Source: an uncultured bacterium
Lineage (GTDB): Bacteria; Actinomycetota; Acidimicrobiia; Acidimicrobiales; VFJN01
Reading direction: 5' to 3'
NCBI GenBank assembly: GCA_963717085.1
Contig: CAVQVM010000022.1
Coordinates: 92,620 to 156,619, forward strand
DNA: 64,000 bases
Shown: piece after piece, positions 15,446 to 55,022 of the stretch
Position numbering within the stretch: position 1 is the first letter of the stretch
How the letters are laid out: the number at the start of each line of letters is the position of its first letter
Notes under the pieces: generated by a model
Seen by the model: only the letters and a program-made list of their open reading frames with translations
Told to the model about the DNA's origin: nothing
Databases searched by the model: none
Translations under genes and position numbers: made by a program

Positions 15446-15481
15446 ATGCACGCGTACCGCCTCCTCGTAATCCTCACGTAG
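15446..15481 (+). CDS. ilvB leader peptide MHAYRLLVILT (11 codons)
   Basis: ATG CAC GCG TAC CGC CTC CTC GTA ATC CTC ACG TAG. Five consecutive branched-chain codons; followed by alternative hairpins and a terminator; 110 nt upstream of ilvB. Confidence 0.6.
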   Translation: MHAYRLLVILT

Positions 15482-15544
15482 CGCACGCCGGCCCCACCGC
15501 GTGCGCTCTCACGACCTCCCATCGGGAGGTCGTTTCAGTTTTCG
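15481..15544 (+). promoter_or_regulatory. ilvBNC attenuator RNA (hairpin at the leader stop plus terminator)
   Basis: Hairpin GCGCACGC(15481-88)/GCGTGCGC(15499-506). Terminator CGACCTCCC-ATC-GGGAGGTCG (15512-15532) followed by TTTCAGTTTTCG. Confidence 0.6.
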
Positions 15545-15591
15545 TCGACTTCCGCAACCACTCGCCACACACCGGACAGGAGCACACCGCC

Positions 15592-32151: not shown

Positions 32152-32691
32152 TCAGCTCGTGCCGCCGCTGTCGCCGTCGCTGCCGGGATCGCTGGACGGC
32201 GCCGGCGCCTTCTTGGCCGAGGGGGCCTTCTTGGTCCCCGCCTTCTTGGCCGGCGCCTTCTTTGCCGAGGCGGATGGCGGTGCCTTGCGGGCCGCGGTCT
32301 TCTTGGCCGGCGCCTTCTTGGCTGGCGCCTTGTCCGCGGCCACCTTCTTCGCCGGCGCCTTTGCCGGCGTTGCCTTCGCCGTCGTCGCGTTGGTTGCCGG
32401 TGCCTTTGTCGTCGCGGCAGTGGCGGTCGCCGTCGTAGAGGTCGCCGCGGTGGCTGCCGGCGCCTTGGGCGCCCGGGACTCCGTCGCGACGGGCGACGTC
32501 GCAGGCTCGGACTCGGATGATGATCCAGGGCGGCGCGGCGCGGGCTCAGGCGTCGACCGCTGCTGCCGCATGAACCGGAGCAGCGCCTGGACCGCGGCCC
32601 CGAGCAGTACCACCAGACCCACGCGGAACAGTCGGCGACTCACGGCTCCCGAGGCTAACCCCTCGGCGACCCCCCCTCGACTGAACCACAC
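32152..32691 (-). CDS. Membrane-anchored protein with a histone-H1/HupB-tail-like Ala/Lys/Pro repeat region
   Basis: N-terminal hydrophobic helix LFRVGLVVLLGAAVQALL, then many (P)AKKA / KAPAKK repeats. The opposite-strand ORF 32159..32857 is an Ala/Phe/Gly artefact. Confidence 0.5.
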   Translation of the reverse strand: MWFSRGGVAEGLASGAVSRRLFRVGLVVLLGAAVQALLRFMRQQRSTPEPAPRRPGSSSESEPATSPVATESRAPKAPAATAATSTTATATAATTKAPATNATTAKATPAKAPAKKVAADKAPAKKAPAKKTAARKAPPSASAKKAPAKKAGTKKAPSAKKAPAPSSDPGSDGDSGGTS

Positions 32692-32738
32692 ACGAACGCG
32701 CCGACCTGCCTTGACGTCGGGCGCCGGGCTCCGGCACC

Positions 32739-32783
32739 ATGACGTCGATGCGCCTGCACACCGCCGGCCTGCTTCTTACCTGA
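32739..32783 (+). CDS. leuA leader peptide MTSMRLHTAGLLLT (14 codons)
   Basis: Three consecutive Leu codons (CTG CTT CTT) just before the stop, plus one earlier Leu. Followed by hairpins and a terminator; 103 nt upstream of leuA. Confidence 0.6.
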   Translation: MTSMRLHTAGLLLT

Positions 32784-34568
<1,785 letters not shown>

Positions 34569-38580: not shown

Positions 38581-39177
38581 TCAGCCGGCGGTCGGCAACC
38601 AGTCGGGCCGGCGGGCCTCGTACTCGTCGATGGCCGCCGCGTACCGCAGTGTGATCGCGATGTCATCGAGACCCTCGATGAAGCGCTCGCGGGTGGCGTC
38701 GTCGAGCGGGAAAGCGCATTCGATGTCGAGGGCGCCGGCGGCGGACAGGGTGCGGCGCTCGACATCGATGGTGAGCTCGAGCCCGGGATCGGCCTCGACG
38801 GCGCGCAGCAGCGCCTCGCCGATGTCGGGCGGGACCACAACCGGCACGAGCCCGTTCTTCGTGGCGTTGTTGCGGAAGATGTCGCCGAACCGCGGGCTCA
38901 CGACGGCGGCGAAGCCGTAGTCCATGAGGGCCCAGACGGCGTGCTCGCGGGACGACCCGGTGCCGAAGTTGGGCCCGGCCACGAGGATCGTGGCCCCGGC
39001 GTAGCGCTCGTCGTTGAGCACGAAGTTGCGGTCGTCGCGCCACGTTGCGAACAGTCCACGGCCGAACCCCGTCCGCTCGACCCGCTTCAGCCACTCGGCG
39101 GGGATGATCTGGTCGGTGTCCACGTCGGAGCGGTCGAGCGGAAGGGCCGTGCCCTGGACGATGCGGACCGGGTTCAT
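38581..39177 (-). CDS. leuD: 3-isopropylmalate dehydratase small subunit
   Basis: VDTDQIIPA...[13 protein letters not shown]. The ATG overlaps the leuC stop. Confidence 0.95.
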
Positions 39178-40607
39178 GAGGCCGCCCGAGTGTCGAGATC
39201 CTCGGGGGTGGCCAGCGTGCCCGCGATCGCGGTGGCGGCGGCGACCGCTGGGGAGACCAGGTGTGTGCGCCCGCCGCGCCCCTGGCGGCCCTCGAAGTTG
39301 CGGTTGCTGGTGGAGGCGCAGCGCTCGCCGGGTGCGAGCTTGTCGGGGTTCATGGCCAGGCACATCGAGCAACCGGGCTCGCGCCAGTCGAAGCCGGCCG
39401 CCTCCAACACCCTGTCGATGCCCTCGGCCTCGGCGTGGGCCTTGACGGCGTGGGATCCGGGCACGACGAGGGTCCGGACACCAGGGGCGACCCTGCGGCC
39501 CTCGGCGACGGCGGCGACGGCCCGCAGGTCCTCGATGCGGCTGTTGGTGCATGATCCGATGAACACGGTGTCGACGACGACGTCGGACAGGGGCGTGCCG
39601 GCCGCCAGTCCCATGTACTCGAGTGCCCGGCGGGCGGCGTCGCGCTCGGAGGGATCGGCGAAGGCGTCGGGGTCGGGCACCCGCCCGGTGATCGGCGCCA
39701 CTTGTCCGGGGTTGGTGCCCCAGGTGACGTGCGGAACGACGCCGGCGGCGTCGAGGTGCACCGCCTTGTCGAAGGCAGCCCCGTCGTCGGTGGCGAGCGT
39801 GCGCCAGTGGTCGAGTGCCCGCTCCCACGAGGCGCCGGTCGGTGCGTAGCGGCGACCCTCGAGGTAGGCGAACGTCGTTTCGTCGGGCGCCACGAGTCCC
39901 GCCTTGGCGCCGGCCTCGATGGACATGTTGCACACGGTCATCCGCCCCTCCATCGAGAGGCTGCGGATGGCGGAGCCGCGGTACTCGATGATCGAGCCGA
40001 TGCCGCCACCCGTTCCGATGCGGCCGATGATGGCGAGGATCACGTCCTTGGCCGTCGTAGCGGCCGGCAATGAGCCCTCGACGGTCACGGCCATGGTGCC
40101 GGGCCGCTGCTGCGGCAGCGTCTGCGTGGCCAGCACATGCTCGACCTCGCTGGTGCCGATCCCGAACGCCAGCGCCCCGAACGCGCCGTGGGTCGAGGTG
40201 TGGCTGTCGCCGCAAACGATGGTCATGCCGGGCTGCGTCAGTCCCTGCTCGGGGCCGATGATGTGGACGATGCCCTGCCCGGGCTCGCCAATGGCGTGGC
40301 AGGTGATGCCGAACTCGTCGCAGTTCGTGCGCAGCACCTGCATCTGCTTGGCCGAGATCGGATCGGCGATCGGTTGGTCGATGCCCTCGGTCGGCACGTT
40401 GTGGTCCATCGTGGCCACGGTGAGGTCGGGCCGCCGGACACGGCGCCCGGCCAGGCGGAGTCCGTCGAACGCCTGCGCCGAGGTGACCTCGTGCACGAGG
40501 TGGAGGTCGATGAACAGCAGGTCGGGGTCGCCCTCCGCGGACCGGACGACGTGCTGGTCCCAGACCTTCTGGCTGAGCGTGCGGGGTCCCGCTGTCGATG
40601 TCGTCAT
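39174..40607 (-). CDS. leuC: 3-isopropylmalate dehydratase large subunit
   Basis: [23 protein letters not shown]; [12 protein letters not shown]; [11 protein letters not shown] at codon 47 of the track ORF. Confidence 0.95.
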
Positions 40608-40645: not shown

Positions 40646-41287
40646 GTGAACAGCATAAGTGGTGTCGGGGTCGTGGACAAGGCGGTCGGCGTGCTGGGCG
40701 CGCTCGAGCGTGGCCCCCAGTCGTTGGCGGAGCTGGTGGCCGCAACCGGCCTGACCCGGGCCACCGCCCACCGCCTGGCGGTCGCGCTCGAGGCCCACGG
40801 GCTCGTGCGGCGTGACGAGGACGGGCGGTTCACACTGGGGCTGCGCCTCATCGGGCTGGGCCATGCCGCCGCCGAGGCCGTCCCCGGCTGGCTCGACGCC
40901 CGCCCGGCGCTCGCCCGGCTCCAGGAGCAGACCGGCGAGTCGGTGCAGCTCTACGTACGCGACCGCGACGTGCGGGTGTGCGTCGAGTCGCTGGAGGCCC
41001 CGCACGAGCTGCGCACGATCGTGCCGGTGGGTGCCCGTCTGCCGCTCGACCGTGGGTCCGGTGGGAGGGTGCTCCGCGACGGGGCCGCGTCCGACTGGGT
41101 CGAGAGCGTGGAGGAGCGCCAGGCGGGGGTGGCGTCGGTGAGCGCCCCGGTCGTGGACCCGTCGGGCCGGGTGGTGGCCGCGGTGAGCGTCAGCGGTCCG
41201 GTGGATCGGACGACCCGCAGCCCCGGTCGCCGTTACGGAACCGCAGTGGCCGAGGCCGCCCGCCGCATCTCCCGGAGCCTCGCCTGA
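40646..41287 (+). CDS. IclR-family transcriptional regulator divergent from leuCD (LtbR-like position)
   Basis: N-terminal winged HTH ([39 protein letters not shown]). Same divergent arrangement as the IclR gene next to leuCD in corynebacteria and mycobacteria. Confidence 0.8.
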
Positions 41288-50095: not shown

Positions 50096-50563
50096 TCAGT
50101 CGATCGAGACGATCTCGACCTGGAGCTCGGCGCCGGTTGGAGCCGTGAACGTCACCGAGTCGCCGGGTCCTGACCCGATGAGGGCCTCACCAAGGGGCGA
50201 CGACGGGCTGATCACCTCCAGGTCGTCGTGGCGTTCCTCGATCGAACCCACGAGGTAGCGCTCGACCTCGTCGTCGCCGGCGTAGCGGATGGCCACCACC
50301 GAGCCATGCGACACGTGCTCACCGTTGTCGGCCTGGACGATCTCGGCGTTCTCGAGCATCGCGGAGAGCTGGCGGATGCGGCCCTCCATCTTGCCTTGCT
50401 CCTCCTTGGCGGCGTGATAGTCACCGTTCTCGGAGAGGTCGCCGAGCTCCCGGGCCGCTTCGATCTTGCGAGCGATCTCGACCCGTCCGCGCGTCGTCAG
50501 GTCCTGATACTCCGCCTGGAGGCGGTCGTACGCGGCCTGCGAGAGGTGGTGGGTCTCTGCCAT
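50096..50563 (-). CDS. greA: Transcription elongation factor GreA
   Basis: LSQAAYDRLQAEYQDLTTRGR...ENGDYHAAKEEQ. 155 aa. Confidence 0.95.
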   Translation of the reverse strand: MAETHHLSQAAYDRLQAEYQDLTTRGRVEIARKIEAARELGDLSENGDYHAAKEEQGKMEGRIRQLSAMLENAEIVQADNGEHVSHGSVVAIRYAGDDEVERYLVGSIEERHDDLEVISPSSPLGEALIGSGPGDSVTFTAPTGAELQVEIVSID

Positions 50564-50668
50564 AGACGCACCAGGCTAGGACGTCGTGACGGGTCGGCCA
50601 ACGGCCAACCGACCGGCGCTCGGCATCGCGGTTGACGCCGCTTGGCGCTTCGGTGAACACTTGCCGCC

Positions 50669-50707
50669 GTGCGTCCCCTCGCCGCCTCGGTAATCATCAT
50701 CGTGTAG
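50669..50707 (+). CDS. leuB-ilvE-cimA leader peptide (V/M)RPLAASVIIIV (12 codons, GTG start)
   Basis: GTG CGT CCC CTC GCC GCC TCG GTA ATC ATC ATC GTG TAG. A Val-Ile-Ile-Ile-Val run sits directly before the stop. Followed by hairpins and a terminator. Confidence 0.5.
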   Translation: MRPLAASVIIIV

Positions 50708-50773
50708 CGCGCGTCGGCTGTCGACGTGCGCTCCCGACCGTCCACCATCGGTGGGCGGTTTGTCATTTATCGG
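50707..50773 (+). promoter_or_regulatory. leuB-operon attenuator RNA
   Basis: Imperfect hairpin AGCGCGCGTCG...TCGACGTGCGCT starts at the leader stop. Terminator ACCGTCCACC-ATC-GGTGGGCGGT (50737-50759) is followed by TTGTCATTTATCGG. Confidence 0.5.
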
Positions 50774-50860
50774 CCCGGATCCCACCCACCCCGGAGAAAC
50801 AGTGAGCGAGCGTGAGCGAGCGAACCATAAGCACAGTGCCCTACTCGCCGCGAAGCGGCG

Positions 50861-51871
50861 ATGGCTCACCTGCGTCCCGAAGGCACGCCGGTGAGCCACC
50901 GAATCGGAGTCATCGGCGGGGACGGCATCGGTCCCGAGGTCATCGCCGAGGCCCTCAAGGTCGTCGGCGCCACCGGTGTCGCGCTCGAGACGGTGGACTA
51001 CGACCTCGGCGGGGCCCGCTACCTACGCGACGGCACGATCCTGCCCGACAGCGTGCTCGACGAGTGGCGCGCCCTCGACGCGCTGCTACTCGGCGCCGTC
51101 GGCACCCCGGAGGTCCCGCCGGGCGTGATCGAGCGGGGGCTGCTGCTCAAGATGCGCTTCGATCTCGATCTCTACATCAACCAGCGGCCCTTCCTCGATC
51201 CCACCCAGGGCATCGACATCGTCGTCATCCGGGAGAACACCGAGGGCCCCTACGTCGGCGAGGGTGGGGTCCTGCGCAAGGGCACACCGCACGAGGTGGC
51301 CACTCAGGGGTCGGTCAACACGCGCATGGGCGTCGAGCGCTGCGTACGCTACGCGTTCGACCTGGCGAGCCAGCGCCCCCGCAAGCACGTCACGCTGGTC
51401 CACAAGACCAACGTGCTCACGTTCGCCGGCGACCTCTGGCAGCGTGCGTTCACCGAGGTGGCCGGCGAGCACCCGGACGTCGGCACCGCCTACAACCACG
51501 TCGACGCCGCCTGCATCTACTTCGTGCAGGAATCGGCGCGGTACGACGTGATCGTCACCGACAACCTGTTCGGCGACATCCTCACCGACCTCGCCGGGGC
51601 CGTGTCGGGCGGCATCGGGTTCGCCGCGTCCGGCAACCTCAATCCGGCGCGCACCGGTCCGTCCATGTTCGAGCCCGTGCACGGCTCGGCGCCCGACATC
51701 GCCGGGCAGGCCAAGGCCAACCCGGTGGCCGCCGTGCTGTCGGCGGCCATGATGCTCGACTTCCTGGGCGAGGCCGACGCCGCCGCCCGCATCCGCAAGG
51801 CCTGCGCCGAACCGTCGGCGCTCACCGGAACCACTCCCGAGATCGGCGACGCCATCGCCGCTCGCGTCTGA
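50861..51871 (+). CDS. leuB: 3-isopropylmalate dehydrogenase
   Basis: [13 protein letters not shown]; [12 protein letters not shown]. The start could be GTG 50891. Confidence 0.95.
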
Positions 51872-51901: not shown

Positions 51902-52819
51902 ATGCCCATCACGCCCACCGAGAAGATCTGGTTCAACGGCGAGCTGATCCCGTGGGACGACGCCAAGATCCACGTCCTCACGCACACGCTCCACTACGGC
52001 ATGGGCGTCTTCGAGGGCATCCGCGCCTACGAGACCGACGACGGCCCGGCCGCGTTCCGCCTCACCGACCACATGCGGCGCATGGACCAGTCGGCGCGGA
52101 TCCTGATGATGCCGATGCCGTACTCGGTCGACGAGCTGGTGCAGGCGGTCAAGGACACTGTGCGCTCGACCGGGCTGCCCGCGTGCTACATCCGTCCCAT
52201 CGCCTACTACGGGTACGGCGAGATGGGCCTCAACACGCTGCCCTGCTCGGTCGACGTGGCCGTGGCGTGCTGGCCGTGGGGCGCATACCTGGGCGACGAC
52301 TCCCTCACCAAGGGCGTGCGCATGAAGATCTCGTCGTGGGCCCGCCACGACCACAACATCATGCCGCCGGCCGCGAAGACCACGGGCAACTACGCGAACA
52401 GCTCGCTGGCGAAGGTCGAGGCGCTCAAGGCCGGCTACGACGAGGCTCTGCTGCTCAACCGCGCCGGCTTCGTGTCGGAGTGCACGGGCGAGAACGTGTT
52501 CGTCGCCCGCCACGGCAAGCTCATCACCCCGCCGCTGTCGGCCGGCGCGCTCGAGGGCATCACCCAGAGCACGGTGTTCGCCATCGCCCGCGATCTCGGC
52601 TTCGACGTCGAGTTCGGCGACCTGTCGCGCAGCGACGTCTACATCGCCGAGGAGATGTTCGTGTGCGGCACCGCGGCCGAGGTGTCGTCGGTCCTCTCGG
52701 TGGACGACCGGGAGCTGCCGTGCCCGGGCCCAATGACCCTGGCGATCGGCGAGGAGTACGGCCGCGTCGTGCGCGGCCAGGTCGACAGGTACAAGGACTG
52801 GGTCGAGCATGTCCGCTGA
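51902..52819 (+). CDS. ilvE: Branched-chain amino-acid aminotransferase (class IV)
   Basis: IWFNGELIPWDDAKIHVLTHTLHYGMGVFEGIRAY...NYANSSLAK. Confidence 0.9.
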   Translation: MPITPTEKIWFNGELIPWDDAKIHVLTHTLHYGMGVFEGIRAYETDDGPAAFRLTDHMRRMDQSARILMMPMPYSVDELVQAVKDTVRSTGLPACYIRPIAYYGYGEMGLNTLPCSVDVAVACWPWGAYLGDDSLTKGVRMKISSWARHDHNIMPPAAKTTGNYANSSLAKVEALKAGYDEALLLNRAGFVSECTGENVFVARHGKLITPPLSAGALEGITQSTVFAIARDLGFDVEFGDLSRSDVYIAEEMFVCGTAAEVSSVLSVDDRELPCPGPMTLAIGEEYGRVVRGQVDRYKDWVEHVR

Positions 52820-54476
52820 CGTACCGAGCCCGGGCGCGGCCACGGACACGCCCGCCGTCGACATCTTCGACACGACCCTGCGGGACGGTGCCCAGTTCGA
52901 GGGGATCTCGCTGTCCGTGGAGGACAAGCTGCGGGTGGCCGAGCAGCTCGACTGGCTGGGGGTCCGCTGGATCGAGGGCGGCTACCCGCAGGCCAATCCC
53001 CGGGACGCCGAGTTCTTCCGCCGTGCGCCGCGCGACCTGCACCTCGACACGGCCACACTGGTGGCCTTCGGGTCGACCCGCCGCCCTGCGGGGCGGGTGG
53101 ACGTTGACCCGACCCTGGCGGCGCTGGTCGGGAGCGGCGTGTCCACCGCCTGCATCGTGGGCAAGAGCTGGGACTTTCACGTGACCGAGGCGCTCGGCAC
53201 CAGCCTCGACGAGGGTGTCGCCATGGTGGGCGACTCGGTGCGGTTCCTGCGCGCCCAGGGCCTGCGGGTGTTCTTCGACGCCGAACACTTCTTCGACGGC
53301 TACAAGGCCAACCCCGAGTACGGGTTGCGGGTGTTGGAGGCGGCGGCCACGGAGGGGGCCGAGGTGCTCGTGCTGTGCGACACGAACGGCGGTTCGCTGC
53401 CGCACGAGGTGCAACGCATCGTGGCCGAGGTGGTGGCCTACTTCGGCGCCGAGCAGCAGATCGGGATCCACACGCAGAACGACAGCGGCTGTGCGGTCGC
53501 CAATTCCGTGGCCGCGGTCGTGGCCGGGGCGACCCACCTGCAGGGGACGGTCAACGGCTACGGCGAGCGGACCGGCAACGCCAACCTCATGACCTGCATC
53601 CCCAACCTGCAGCTCAAGATGGGCGTGCGCTGCCTGCCGGCGTCCCGCCTCGACCGGCTCACGGCGGTCAGCCGGCACGTTGCCGAGCTCGTCAACCTGC
53701 CGCCGCACTCGGCCGATCCCTACGTCGGTGCCTCGGCGTTCGCCCACAAGGGCGGGCTGCACACGTCGGCCCTGGGCAAGGTCGGTGGTGCCAGCTACGA
53801 GCACGTCGATCCCGCGCTCGTCGGCAACCACACCCGGGTGCTGGTGTCCGACCTCGGCGGGCGATCGGGCATGGCGCTCAAGGCCAAGGAGTTCGGCGTC
53901 GGGCTCGACGGGCGGGCGGCGGCCGAGCTGTCCGACCGCCTCAAGCACCTCGAGGCCGACGGCTATCAGTTCGAGGCCGCCGACGCCTCCCTCGAACTGC
54001 TCATGCTGGAGGCCGGGGGATGGCGCCAGCCCTACTTCCAGCTCGAGGGCTACCGCGTCACCACGTACCACCGCAACGCCGTGCGGGGTGGTGCACCCAT
54101 CGAGGACGGCGAGTCGATGATCGACACCGAGGCCACGGTCAAGGTGTGGGTGGGCGACGAGCGGCTGGTGGCCGTGGGCGAGGGCAACGGACCGGTCAAC
54201 GCGCTGGACGCCGCTCTGCGGTCCGTGCTCACCGACCGCTACCCGCAGCTGGACCGGATCCACCTCACGGACTTCAAGGTGCGCGTGCTCGAGGGCGCAG
54301 CGGCCACCGGTGCGGTCGTGCGCGTGCTCATCGACTCGGCAGACGGCGATCGCACGTGGTCGACCATCGGGGTCAGCGAGAACGTCATCGAGGCGTCCTG
54401 GCAGGCGCTCGTCGACTCACTGGTCTACGGCCTGCTCAAGGGGTCGGACGGCTCCCACGCCGCCGATGCTGGATGA
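52809..54476 (+). CDS. cimA: Citramalate synthase (LeuA-family, CimA-like)
   Basis: IFDTTLRDGAQFEGISLSVEDKL; HTQNDSGCAVAN; C-terminal LeuA-dimer-type domain. Distinct from the long LeuA at 32886. Assignment rests on family resemblance, not assay. Confidence 0.7.
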   Translation: MSADVPSPGAATDTPAVDIFDTTLRDGAQFEGISLSVEDKLRVAEQLDWLGVRWIEGGYPQANPRDAEFFRRAPRDLHLDTATLVAFGSTRRPAGRVDVDPTLAALVGSGVSTACIVGKSWDFHVTEALGTSLDEGVAMVGDSVRFLRAQGLRVFFDAEHFFDGYKANPEYGLRVLEAAATEGAEVLVLCDTNGGSLPHEVQRIVAEVVAYFGAEQQIGIHTQNDSGCAVANSVAAVVAGATHLQGTVNGYGERTGNANLMTCIPNLQLKMGVRCLPASRLDRLTAVSRHVAELVNLPPHSADPYVGASAFAHKGGLHTSALGKVGGASYEHVDPALVGNHTRVLVSDLGGRSGMALKAKEFGVGLDGRAAAELSDRLKHLEADGYQFEAADASLELLMLEAGGWRQPYFQLEGYRVTTYHRNAVRGGAPIEDGESMIDTEATVKVWVGDERLVAVGEGNGPVNALDAALRSVLTDRYPQLDRIHLTDFKVRVLEGAAATGAVVRVLIDSADGDRTWSTIGVSENVIEASWQALVDSLVYGLLKGSDGSHAADAG

Positions 54477-54503: not shown

Positions 54504-55022
54504 GTGGCCGCGCCTGAGTATGTCCCCGAGCCTGCGATCAGGCGCGTCCGGAACTACGAGTCGAACCCGTGGCGACCGGAGTCGTGGCGACCGGTGCGAC
54601 CCGGTGACGAGCCCTGGCACCAGCCCACGGGGGAGCGGCTGGGTTCCCCCGGCCCCGACCAGGGCTACGTCTACGTGTTGGCGCGATGGTTCGAGGGGCA
54701 CCTGCAGCTCGCGCACGACGAGAACGAGCCGGACGCACTGGTCGGCTGCATCGGGGTCGCGCTCAAGCGCGCGTCCCTGTTCGGGCGGGCTCCGGTGGTG
54801 CACGACCTCACCGCGGCGCTGACCATCTGGGGGTTCCTGGGGGACGCGCCGCCCGACCTGATCGCCTACCGCCAGCCGCTGTTCGCCGAGGTCGCGAACC
54901 CCCAGCACTATGCCGAGCAGCGCCGCATCGTCGACCTCGTGCCCGAGGACGTGCTGCGGCTCACCCCGGACGAGATCGCCGAACGGCATCGGGCCGACTG
55001 GCGATCGCTCCTCGCCGTGTAG
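54504..55022 (+). CDS. Conserved-looking hypothetical protein (172 aa)
   Basis: Normal amino-acid composition. The stop abuts the next gene's GTG. No motif recognised. Confidence 0.5.
   Translation: MAAPEYVPEPAIRRVRNYESNPWRPESWRPVRPGDEPWHQPTGERLGSPGPDQGYVYVLARWFEGHLQLAHDENEPDALVGCIGVALKRASLFGRAPVVHDLTAALTIWGFLGDAPPDLIAYRQPLFAEVANPQHYAEQRRIVDLVPEDVLRLTPDEIAERHRADWRSLLAV

Follow-up and report, generated by a model that had tools for sequence, protein, structure and literature searches.

The window analysed here is a 64,000-nucleotide (nt) stretch of DNA from an uncultured member of the Acidimicrobiales (contig CAVQVM010000022.1, positions 92,620 to 156,619), and the element in question is a compact leader of about 100 nt that stands in front of its leuB, ilvE and cimA genes. 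Results of our comparative analyses make it very likely that this element is a ribosome-mediated leader-peptide transcription attenuator, by which expression of leuB-ilvE-cimA would be tied to the level of charged tRNA-Ile and perhaps of tRNA-Val. The strongest evidence is a swap of codons on a constant RNA scaffold: the same design carries different regulatory codons, at the end of a short open reading frame (ORF), before ilvB, before leuB-ilvE-cimA and before cimA, which argues for reading of the ORF by the ribosome and for a sensor role of its codons. As natural evidence for codon-specific sensing this is unusually clean. The leader also provides regulatory evidence, independent of sequence similarity, for a role in isoleucine (Ile) synthesis of the TIGR00977-type LeuA paralogue of Acidimicrobiia, hosts that belong to the abundant, mostly uncultured Actinomycetota of soil and freshwater. 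By implication, citramalate synthase is handled by the cell as the committed step of its route, under the control of Ile. Control of a known type would here have a new target, namely cimA and with it the citramalate route, and a new, lineage-specific scaffold, which is small enough to be easily tested and reused in engineered systems.

A short ORF and two hairpins precede leuB

The leader lies in a 297-nt gap between greA (50096-50563, minus strand) and leuB, in a window of 71% G+C. On the plus strand we read from the sequence a promoter with a -35 box TTGACG (50632-50637), an 18-nt spacer and a -10-like hexamer AACACT (50656-50661), the end of which is 7 nt away from the GTG at 50669. This GTG opens a 12-codon ORF, MRPLAASVIIIV followed by TAG (50669-50707, with the stop at 50705-50707), which encodes M/V-RPLAASVIIIV, is conserved in frame and is predicted to be translated leaderless. 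Its regulatory codons are GTA (50690-50692), three ATC codons (50693-50701) and GTG (50702-50704). Hairpin A (50706-50732, plus strand) has the A and G of this TAG at its base and consists of 12 pairs, two of them G-U; it is supported by folding and by covariation. After a 3-nt spacer, CCC (50733-50735), hairpin T follows (50736-50760; 11 pairs, ATC loop) together with an interrupted U-tract, TTTGTCATTTAT, the whole forming an intrinsic-terminator-like unit at 50736-50770 on the same strand; the tail directly 3′ of hairpin T reads TTTGTCATTT, likewise given as TGTCATTTAT.

At the sequence level, two ingredients of an attenuator were found at this place: an intrinsic terminator between the ORF and the first gene, as an 11-pair GC-rich hairpin with a U-rich tail, and a run of end-product codons in a short ORF upstream of a biosynthetic operon, for which translation is indicated by frame conservation and synonymous variation. 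The ORF ending in VIIIV, the hairpin at its stop codon and an ATC-loop stem like that of the ilvB terminator had been pointed out in a preliminary description of this DNA; all three were recovered here, and the copy before ilvB has an ATC loop as well. The features of the single sequence do not go beyond chance, however, as a terminator scan gave one site in 6 kb vs. 1.2 in shuffles and the fold z-score of the window leader was only -2.3. The case therefore rests on comparison with relatives.

Searches of Rfam gave no family for the leader in a scan of the whole window at the gathering threshold. When the region 50560-50900 was searched at E-values up to 10, matches were at chance level only (Hrs13 at 15 bits, with a gathering threshold of 52, and mir-9168). 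The T-box riboswitch (RF00230) matched neither in the window at the gathering threshold nor in 50560-50900 at E-values up to 10, no covariance model of the amino-acid leader families (leucine (Leu), Thr, His, Trp and others) matched the leuB leader, and at E-values up to 10 nothing was obtained for the ilvB leader copy.

The leader ORF is conserved among Acidimicrobiia

For the comparison, a LeuB scan with one genome kept per species gave 80 Acidimicrobiia loci; the LeuB of the window is 74-93% identical to LeuB of Acidimicrobiales/Acidimicrobiia genomes. Leader detection in this genome set accepted any stop codon. It yielded 61 genome-derived leaders, from the window and 60 of the 80 loci, with the leader standing before leuB in 24 genome loci and before cimA in 37-39. 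About 80 further metagenome loci with the leader were obtained among the matches listed. The order of elements in the relatives is the same throughout: short ORF, TAG, hairpin A, a spacer of a few nt, hairpin T and a U-rich tract.

The N-terminal part of the leader peptide is variable, and what is kept is the Ile run followed by exactly one more codon before the stop. Counted in codons back from the stop, Ile is the residue at position -2 in 60 of the 61 leaders, at -3 in 53 and at -4 in 55, while position -5 is Ile in 36 and valine (Val) in 19. The preliminary description had left the upstream regions of leuB to be compared across relatives, and on this comparison the Ile run is kept. At the regulatory positions ATC and ATT interchange synonymously, and codons that are rare in the genes of the window are enriched: among the Ile codons, ATT accounts for 106 of 297 vs. 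6 of 277 in window genes, and among the Val codons GTA for 53 of 92 vs. 8 of 610. These patterns indicate selection on the ORF for its role as a peptide-coding sensor.

A TTGAC-like -35 box and a -10-like hexamer were present in 61 of 61 leaders, with the hexamer ending 6-10 nt (mode 7-8) before the start codon, and no Shine-Dalgarno sequence was found before the leader ORFs. The leader ORF is thus most likely the 5′ end of the transcript and translated leaderless. The preliminary description had regarded the GTG start and the weak ribosome-binding site as a weakness; given the fixed distance from the hexamer to the start codon, the ORF is probably leaderless and a GTG without a ribosome-binding site counts for little against it.

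The stop codon of the leader is TAG in all 61 genome-derived leaders, whereas the usual stop of the window genes is TGA. Base pairing alone does not explain the invariant TAG, and a candidate explanation is a requirement for RF1.

A promoter-like match on the minus strand (50724-50696) was considered as the cause of the conservation and was rejected. Its GATGAT box is the complement of the Ile codons, and the ATC/ATT run is conserved also before cimA, where greA is not adjacent.

The leader follows cimA and its codons follow the operon

Among genome loci, cimA was in view in 66, and in 39 of these it stood at least 190 nt from ilvE, while the other 27 had a leuB(-ilvE)-cimA cluster. Where cimA was detached, an Ile-run leader was found directly upstream of it in 39 of 39 loci, but before leuB in none of the 39; in L057 the tail of the leader is degenerate (AIMLIP). 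No leader precedes leuB in about half of the loci, which are mainly Ilumatobacteraceae; in these a homologous leader stands 2-4 kb downstream, directly before cimA. The cimA-type leader typically ends in xIIIIR or xIIIIP and is followed by TAG, hairpin A and the terminator. Where leuB(-ilvE)-cimA form a cluster, the leader was located upstream of leuB in 23 of 27. The association gives strong comparative support to the Ile control of the cimA unit that had been suggested beforehand from the window. An Ile-only leader before a detached cimA is also independent, circumstantial support for a role of the gene product as citramalate synthase.

Metagenome data were scanned with a pattern of the RNA scaffold, TAGCGCACG..CGTGCGC..CCGYCC, in which the codons before the stop were unconstrained. 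At least 120 matches were obtained. Since the pattern includes TAGCGCACG, TAG stops in the metagenome leaders are not independent evidence; the genome set is. Among the matches listed, leaders stood before leuB (52), cimA (17), ilvE-cimA (2) and ilvB (11); a further 17 were too near a contig end, and 21 were chance matches without these genes downstream. All leuB-type metagenome loci with enough downstream sequence, again among the matches listed, were leuB-ilvE-cimA or leuB-cimA.

The codons differ according to the gene that follows. Over positions -6 to -2, Ile makes up 76% in cimA-type leaders, and 44-53% in leuB-type leaders together with 22-23% Val and occasional Leu (for metagenomes, in the matches listed). 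In ilvB-type leaders among the matches listed, the same positions hold 48% Val, 30% Leu and 14% Ile. At position -2, matches listed included, Ile was found in 122 of 123 leuB- or cimA-type leaders and Val in 10 of 10 ilvB-type leaders.

Such an ilvB-type copy is present in the window itself. The attenuator copy before ilvBNC (15447-15545, plus strand) has a leader ORF at 15447-15482 with the peptide MHAYRLLVILT, then TAG, hairpin A (GCGCACGCCGG..CCGCGTGCGC), the terminator GACCTCCC-ATC-GGGAGGTC and the tail TTTCAGTTTT. It shares with the leuB leader the TAG-CGCACG..CGTGCGC hairpin and the ATC-loop terminator, here after a 5-nt spacer. The window contains the design twice and no more, and the two look like paralogous copies whose regulatory codons have been exchanged. 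The preliminary description had suggested that control appears divided among three leaders, with LLVIL for ilvBNC, LLL for leuA and VIIIV for leuB-ilvE-cimA. For ilvB the comparison bears this out, through the Val at position -2; the leuA leader, MRLHTAGLLLT, is present in the window.

Hairpins A and T are covarying and independent

In an alignment of the 61 leaders, 91.5% of helix cells were paired vs. 31-50% with slid partners. Changes on both sides with pairing kept were seen in 14 of the 23 pairs, 9 of 12 in hairpin A and 5 of 11 in hairpin T, and none of 500 shuffles reached the observed covariation values. RNAalifold returned exactly helices A and T for the leaders and nothing else. Hairpin A starts at +1 or +2 from the U of the UAG in 53 of 58 leaders, and in the 58 leaders the spacer between A and T is 0-6 nt long (median 2). 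The two hairpins are about equally stable (median free energies of -18.9 kcal/mol for A and -18.3 kcal/mol for T), and a median of 6 U is found in the 10 nt after hairpin T. A and T are independent. Of the hallmarks of a leader-peptide attenuator the element shows three and is without one, an antiterminator mutually exclusive with the terminator. In position, hairpin A is the equivalent of an antiterminator, and it may act as a pause hairpin too.

Four core pairs of hairpin T, CCG.C/G.CGG, never vary in the 61 leaders, while hairpin A covaries freely. They correspond to columns 58-60 and 62 paired with 77 and 79-81 of the alignment (A1), i.e., to window positions 50738-50740 and 50742 paired with 50754 and 50756-50758. 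Base pairing alone gives no explanation of this invariance, and a candidate one is a pause signal, placed at the invariant C-G step that stands 8-10 nt after hairpin A.

In one cimA-type subfamily (L019, 4664-4760; also L028 and L044) hairpin A has a 10-nt loop, GGUUCGUUCU, complementary to a segment directly after the terminator U-tract, GGAAUGAACC; L019 has 10 such pairs, L028 and L044 have 7. This loop-tail pairing is a possible pseudoknot, which could form only in read-through transcripts.

Proposed mechanism

We infer that hairpin T terminates transcription, that stalling of the ribosome relieves termination, and that hairpin A acts by steric proximity and not by base-pair competition, as it shares no bases with T and cannot compete with it. 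Transcription would start at or beside the GTG at 50669, and a 70S ribosome would translate the 12-codon ORF without a 5′ leader. With Ile plentiful, the ribosome would reach the UAG and unwind the base of hairpin A; hairpin T would close before the U-tract and transcription would end before leuB. With Ile-tRNA scarce, the ribosome would wait on the Ile codons, one codon before the stop, and hairpin A would stay folded at the mRNA entrance. Folded, and standing 0-6 nt from T with the ribosome behind it, hairpin A would block closure of the basal pairs of T in RNA polymerase and read-through into leuB-ilvE-cimA would result. Two further translocations would bring the ribosome to the UAG and unzip hairpin A, by which a compact hairpin of about 27 nt would become slack and T would close.

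The geometry of the leaders is compatible with such a switch. From the first nucleotide of the last Ile codon it is 6 nt to the stop, and hairpin A sets in 1-2 nt into the stop, so that this codon and the base of A are 7-8 nt apart. The helicase of the ribosome is located about 11 nt downstream of the first nucleotide in the P site. With this spacing and helicase position, a stall at any of the four regulatory codons is predicted to leave hairpin A folded, with its base touched at most, while a ribosome with the UAG in its A site would have to open 6-8 pairs of A. In E. coli, closure of the last 2-3 pairs of a terminator is required for termination, and a ribosome 5 nt from the terminator cuts termination from about 90% to less than 10% (PMC4824070). 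These findings make the steric mechanism plausible, not proven. We put forward, as a tentative model, that hairpin A is a non-overlapping antiterminator working as a distance switch in the RNA exit channel, with exchangeable codons: Ile for cimA, Val/Ile for leuB-ilvE-cimA and Leu/Val for ilvBNC. It would possibly be a new way to transmit a stall to a terminator, and the conserved geometry, together with the lack of an overlapping antiterminator, suggests a coupling that is not the textbook one.

Weighing of the attenuator against other explanations

Several observations speak against an Ile-responsive attenuator in front of leuB. The U-tract after hairpin T is interrupted (TTTGTCATTT), and the window leader has only three Ile codons, with Val codons on either side. 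Four leuB-ilvE-cimA clusters (L022, L056, L061 and L065) have no leader. The substrate preference of CimA is predicted from a hidden Markov model family, the TIGR00977 equivalog. To these we add the results of folding with a ribosome mask, in which eight diverse leaders were modelled with the ribosome placed on the Ile codons, on the codon after them or on the stop: hairpin T was in the minimum-free-energy fold in every state modelled. No antiterminator sharing nucleotides with T was found in the masked folds, in arm duplexes or with RNAalifold, and duplexes of the 5′ and 3′ arms of the two hairpins (A3:T5, A3:T3, A5:T5, A5:T3), or of the leader with the 3′ arm of T (leader:T3), were no better than shuffles in 57 leaders (mean z from -0.5 to +0.7). 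Hence the step from stalling to read-through is a steric argument without direct precedent.

The same results bear on the view that this is a classical four-segment attenuator with an overlapping antiterminator that was missed, and for which a pseudoknot, non-canonical contacts or nucleotides upstream of the Ile codons might be used. Mutually exclusive hairpins are found in almost every leader-peptide attenuator that has been characterised, the model for M. tuberculosis ilvB1 among them, and the GCC-GCC codons of the leader can form 6 pairs with GGGCGG in the 3′ arm of T. This GCCGCC pairing was rejected as a candidate, being not above base composition (z = -0.5). Formation of T in every mask state at eight diverse loci, arm duplexes no better than shuffles, and the recovery by RNAalifold of A and T only speak against a hidden antiterminator, and the region upstream of the Ile codons is unconserved and would be covered by the stalled ribosome. 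We regard a classical design as quite unlikely. Another way to read the two hairpins, and the main alternative to the steric model, is that A and T form one cluster terminator: a stall on the last Ile codon would stop A from folding and weaken termination, and both hairpins would fold after release at the UAG. A survey by computation and RNA-seq reports that hairpins separated by fewer than 15 nt work as joint termination units (PMC8355165), the 0-6 nt between A and T fall in this range, and the direction of regulation would be correct. Such a cluster fits the geometry less well, since by the spacing and the helicase position given above a stalled ribosome would reach the first pair or two of A at most and A would stay folded, and T alone has a strong stem and a U-tract. 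We consider it unlikely; the steric and the cluster models make opposite predictions for mutations that destabilise hairpin A.

Turning from the hairpins to the signal, the leader could sense the general branched-chain supply, i.e., Val, Ile and Leu together, and not Ile specifically. The V-I-I-I-V of the window leader, the first Val of which uses the rare GTA, is in line with this and suggests that Val may contribute to sensing here. Position -5 is Val in 48 of 72 leuB-type leaders (18 of 24 from genomes and 30 of 48 from metagenomes, in the matches listed), some leuB-type leaders carry Leu (VILIP, VILIS), and leuB and ilvE also serve the synthesis of Leu and Val. Against these stand the near-invariant Ile at position -2 of the leuB- and cimA-type leaders (122 of 123, matches listed), the pure IIII of the leader that controls cimA alone, and the ilvB copy, which shows what a multivalent version looks like. 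General sensing is a doubtful reading, though one to be taken seriously. By comparison, it is very improbable that the conserved element is an untranslated RNA, T-box-like or riboswitch-like, that binds a protein, tRNA or metabolite, with the small ORF incidental to it. A bound factor could explain the invariant core of T and the low variation at the base of A. Against this, a search of Rfam at E-values up to 10 gave no matching family, and the frame is conserved, with a fixed distance from the -10-like hexamer to the start, no in-frame stops and a stop exactly one codon after the Ile run. The Ile codons moreover change synonymously, and take on Leu/Val identity before ilvB on the same scaffold.

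Comparison with known leader peptides

The enterobacterial attenuators (ilvL of ilvGMEDA, ivbL, leuL, thrL, trpL and hisL) have a leader of end-product codons and an intrinsic terminator, with rare sensing codons in leuL. Their leaders possess a ribosome-binding site and carry the regulatory codons in segment 1 of a 1:2/2:3/3:4 system with an overlapping antiterminator. The element described here resembles them in its end-product-codon leader upstream of a biosynthetic operon, in the terminator before the first gene and in the use of rare sensing codons. It differs in that the ORF is predicted to be leaderless, the codons end one before a stop that is embedded in hairpin A, no overlapping antiterminator is present and no Rfam family matches. 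In E. coli pyrBI and pyrE, it is the closeness of the ribosome to the terminator hairpin, not an RNA antiterminator, that prevents termination. Physical proximity of the ribosome would likewise block termination in our case without an RNA antiterminator, as in pyrBI/pyrE and in the occlusion experiments (PMC4824070). There, the ribosome is on the 5′ arm of the terminator or a few nt from it, and what is sensed is how fast the polymerase moves (UTP). In our element tRNA charging would be sensed, and the stall would lie about 36 nt upstream, from where only the folding of hairpin A would bring it near.

A close likeness is with the ilvB1NC leader of M. tuberculosis, also actinobacterial, which combines a short upstream ORF (uORF) having branched-chain codons, rare GUA among them, with a hairpin after the stop and a Rho-independent terminator (PMC13236596). 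Its LVVI codons include GUA, the anti-terminator forms on a stall and is masked by a ribosome at the stop, and a change of LVVI to AAAA abolishes induction (PMC13236596). The stall and stop-codon logic proposed here is the one proposed, with mutational support, for ilvB1 (PMC13236596). The M. tuberculosis leader nevertheless controls ilvB1NC and not cimA, is multivalent (LVVI) and not Ile-specific, and has UGA as its stop where ours has UAG. Its anti-terminator and terminator are described as mutually exclusive folds, whereas hairpins A and T share no nucleotides and can coexist.

In Actinobacteria, leader peptides and terminators have been reported upstream of ilvB, and LEU elements upstream of leuA (PMC1262725); leader peptides of Streptomyces are leaderless as a rule (PMC8079986). 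The leaders of Streptomyces and Corynebacterium (ilvL, leuL, trpL) have an ORF at the 5′ end of the transcript, as is predicted for ours, and share with ours branched-chain codons followed by a hairpin and a U-rich stretch, there before ilvB; they are described for ilvB, leuA, leuS, trpE and trpS, with leuB and cimA unmentioned (PMC8079986, PMC1262725). The S. lividans ilvL peptide, MRTRILVLGKRVG, has its regulatory codons in the middle of the ORF and not beside the stop as here. About a quarter of mycobacterial mRNAs begin with a 5′-end AUG or GUG (bioRxiv 10.1101/834739). Among mycobacterial small ORFs, the leaderless polycysteine ones are comparable in having a run of end-product codons near the 3′ end and regulation by ribosome occupancy, which is proposed for ours (bioRxiv 10.1101/834739). 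What they regulate is translation: a duplex masks the Shine-Dalgarno sequence of the following gene, and there is no terminator, while in our element a terminator-like hairpin and U-tract precede an exposed Shine-Dalgarno sequence. We searched the literature for a leader peptide of cimA or leuB and, in Acidimicrobiia, for citramalate; nothing relevant came up, and no paper was found that connects a leader peptide with citramalate synthase.

Genes of the operon and neighbouring features

The genes reported downstream of the leader in the preliminary description are borne out by family models. On the plus strand, leuB, for 3-isopropylmalate dehydrogenase, extends over 50891-51871 (NF002898, 485 bits with a cutoff of 393) and is followed by ilvE, for a class I branched-chain aminotransferase (51902-52819; TIGR01122, 378 bits, cutoff 246), and by cimA of the citramalate synthase family (52809-54476; TIGR00977, 672 bits, cutoff 450), which overlaps the ilvE stop. 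The cimA product was below the cutoff on every LeuA model, with a best LeuA score of 231 bits vs. a cutoff of 517, and a separate true leuA is present at 32802-34568 (TIGR00970, 823 bits). A sequence search of the PDB with CimA gave an isopropylmalate synthase as the best match (E = 1e-35) and only distant LeuA and homocitrate synthases. As these structures are distant, substrate specificity is not settled by structure. An ilvA-like gene was not found among the scanned ORFs of the window, the rest of the genome being outside the scan, and the earlier remark that the window has no ilvA holds for these ORFs.

The native start of leuB is probably GTG 50891 and not ATG 50861. Alignment with L001, L004 and L009, in which LeuB begins directly at GGAGAAGCA-GTG-AGC-CAC-CGA, locates an ancestral leuB Shine-Dalgarno sequence GGAG (50793-50796) and an ancestral start GTG (50802-50804) on the plus strand of the window. 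By the same alignment, an 89-nt insertion (50808-50896) flanked by direct repeats of GTGAGC (50802-50807 and 50891-50896) separates these from the native start; the in-frame ATG 50861 sits inside it. The insertion is present only in the window and in L002. We looked for another copy in the window and the 80 loci and found none, and the idea of a repeated mobile element was rejected on account of this single copy. The insertion creates a 30-codon uORF (50802-50894), the TGA of which overlaps the native leuB GTG 50891 (GTGA). Given this overlap and the in-frame ATG, translation of leuB may here proceed by termination-reinitiation or depend on a new start.

Downstream, the region 54504-55022 encodes a 172-amino-acid (aa) protein with no Pfam match, and in most loci, from genomes as well as metagenomes, its gene stands about 30-60 nt after cimA. 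Possibly the Ile-controlled unit has in it a fourth, conserved gene.

The leader of leuA (32711-32815) has a TTGACG promoter and a probably leaderless ORF, from ATG 32748 to TGA 32783, which encodes MRLHTAGLLLT with rare CTT codons. Its hairpin, GACGAGCACC..GGTGCTCGTC, covers the leuA start region (GTG 32802) with the 3′ arm and is without a U-tract, which suggests translational control like that of the actinobacterial LEU element and not termination. The genes leuD (38581-39177) and leuC (39174-40606) are encoded on the minus strand, and a gap of about 40 nt separates them from a divergent gene for an IclR-family regulator (40646-41287). No copy of the attenuator design was found before leuCD, where only the 40-nt gap to the IclR-type gene is available. 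Without a leader peptide, the dehydratase common to the Leu and citramalate routes would be under a different control. In the interval between serA and leuA, on the minus strand, an ORF at 32152-32691 encodes a 179-aa protein with a hydrophobic N-terminal segment and a long Ala/Lys/Pro-rich, AKKAPAKK-like tail.

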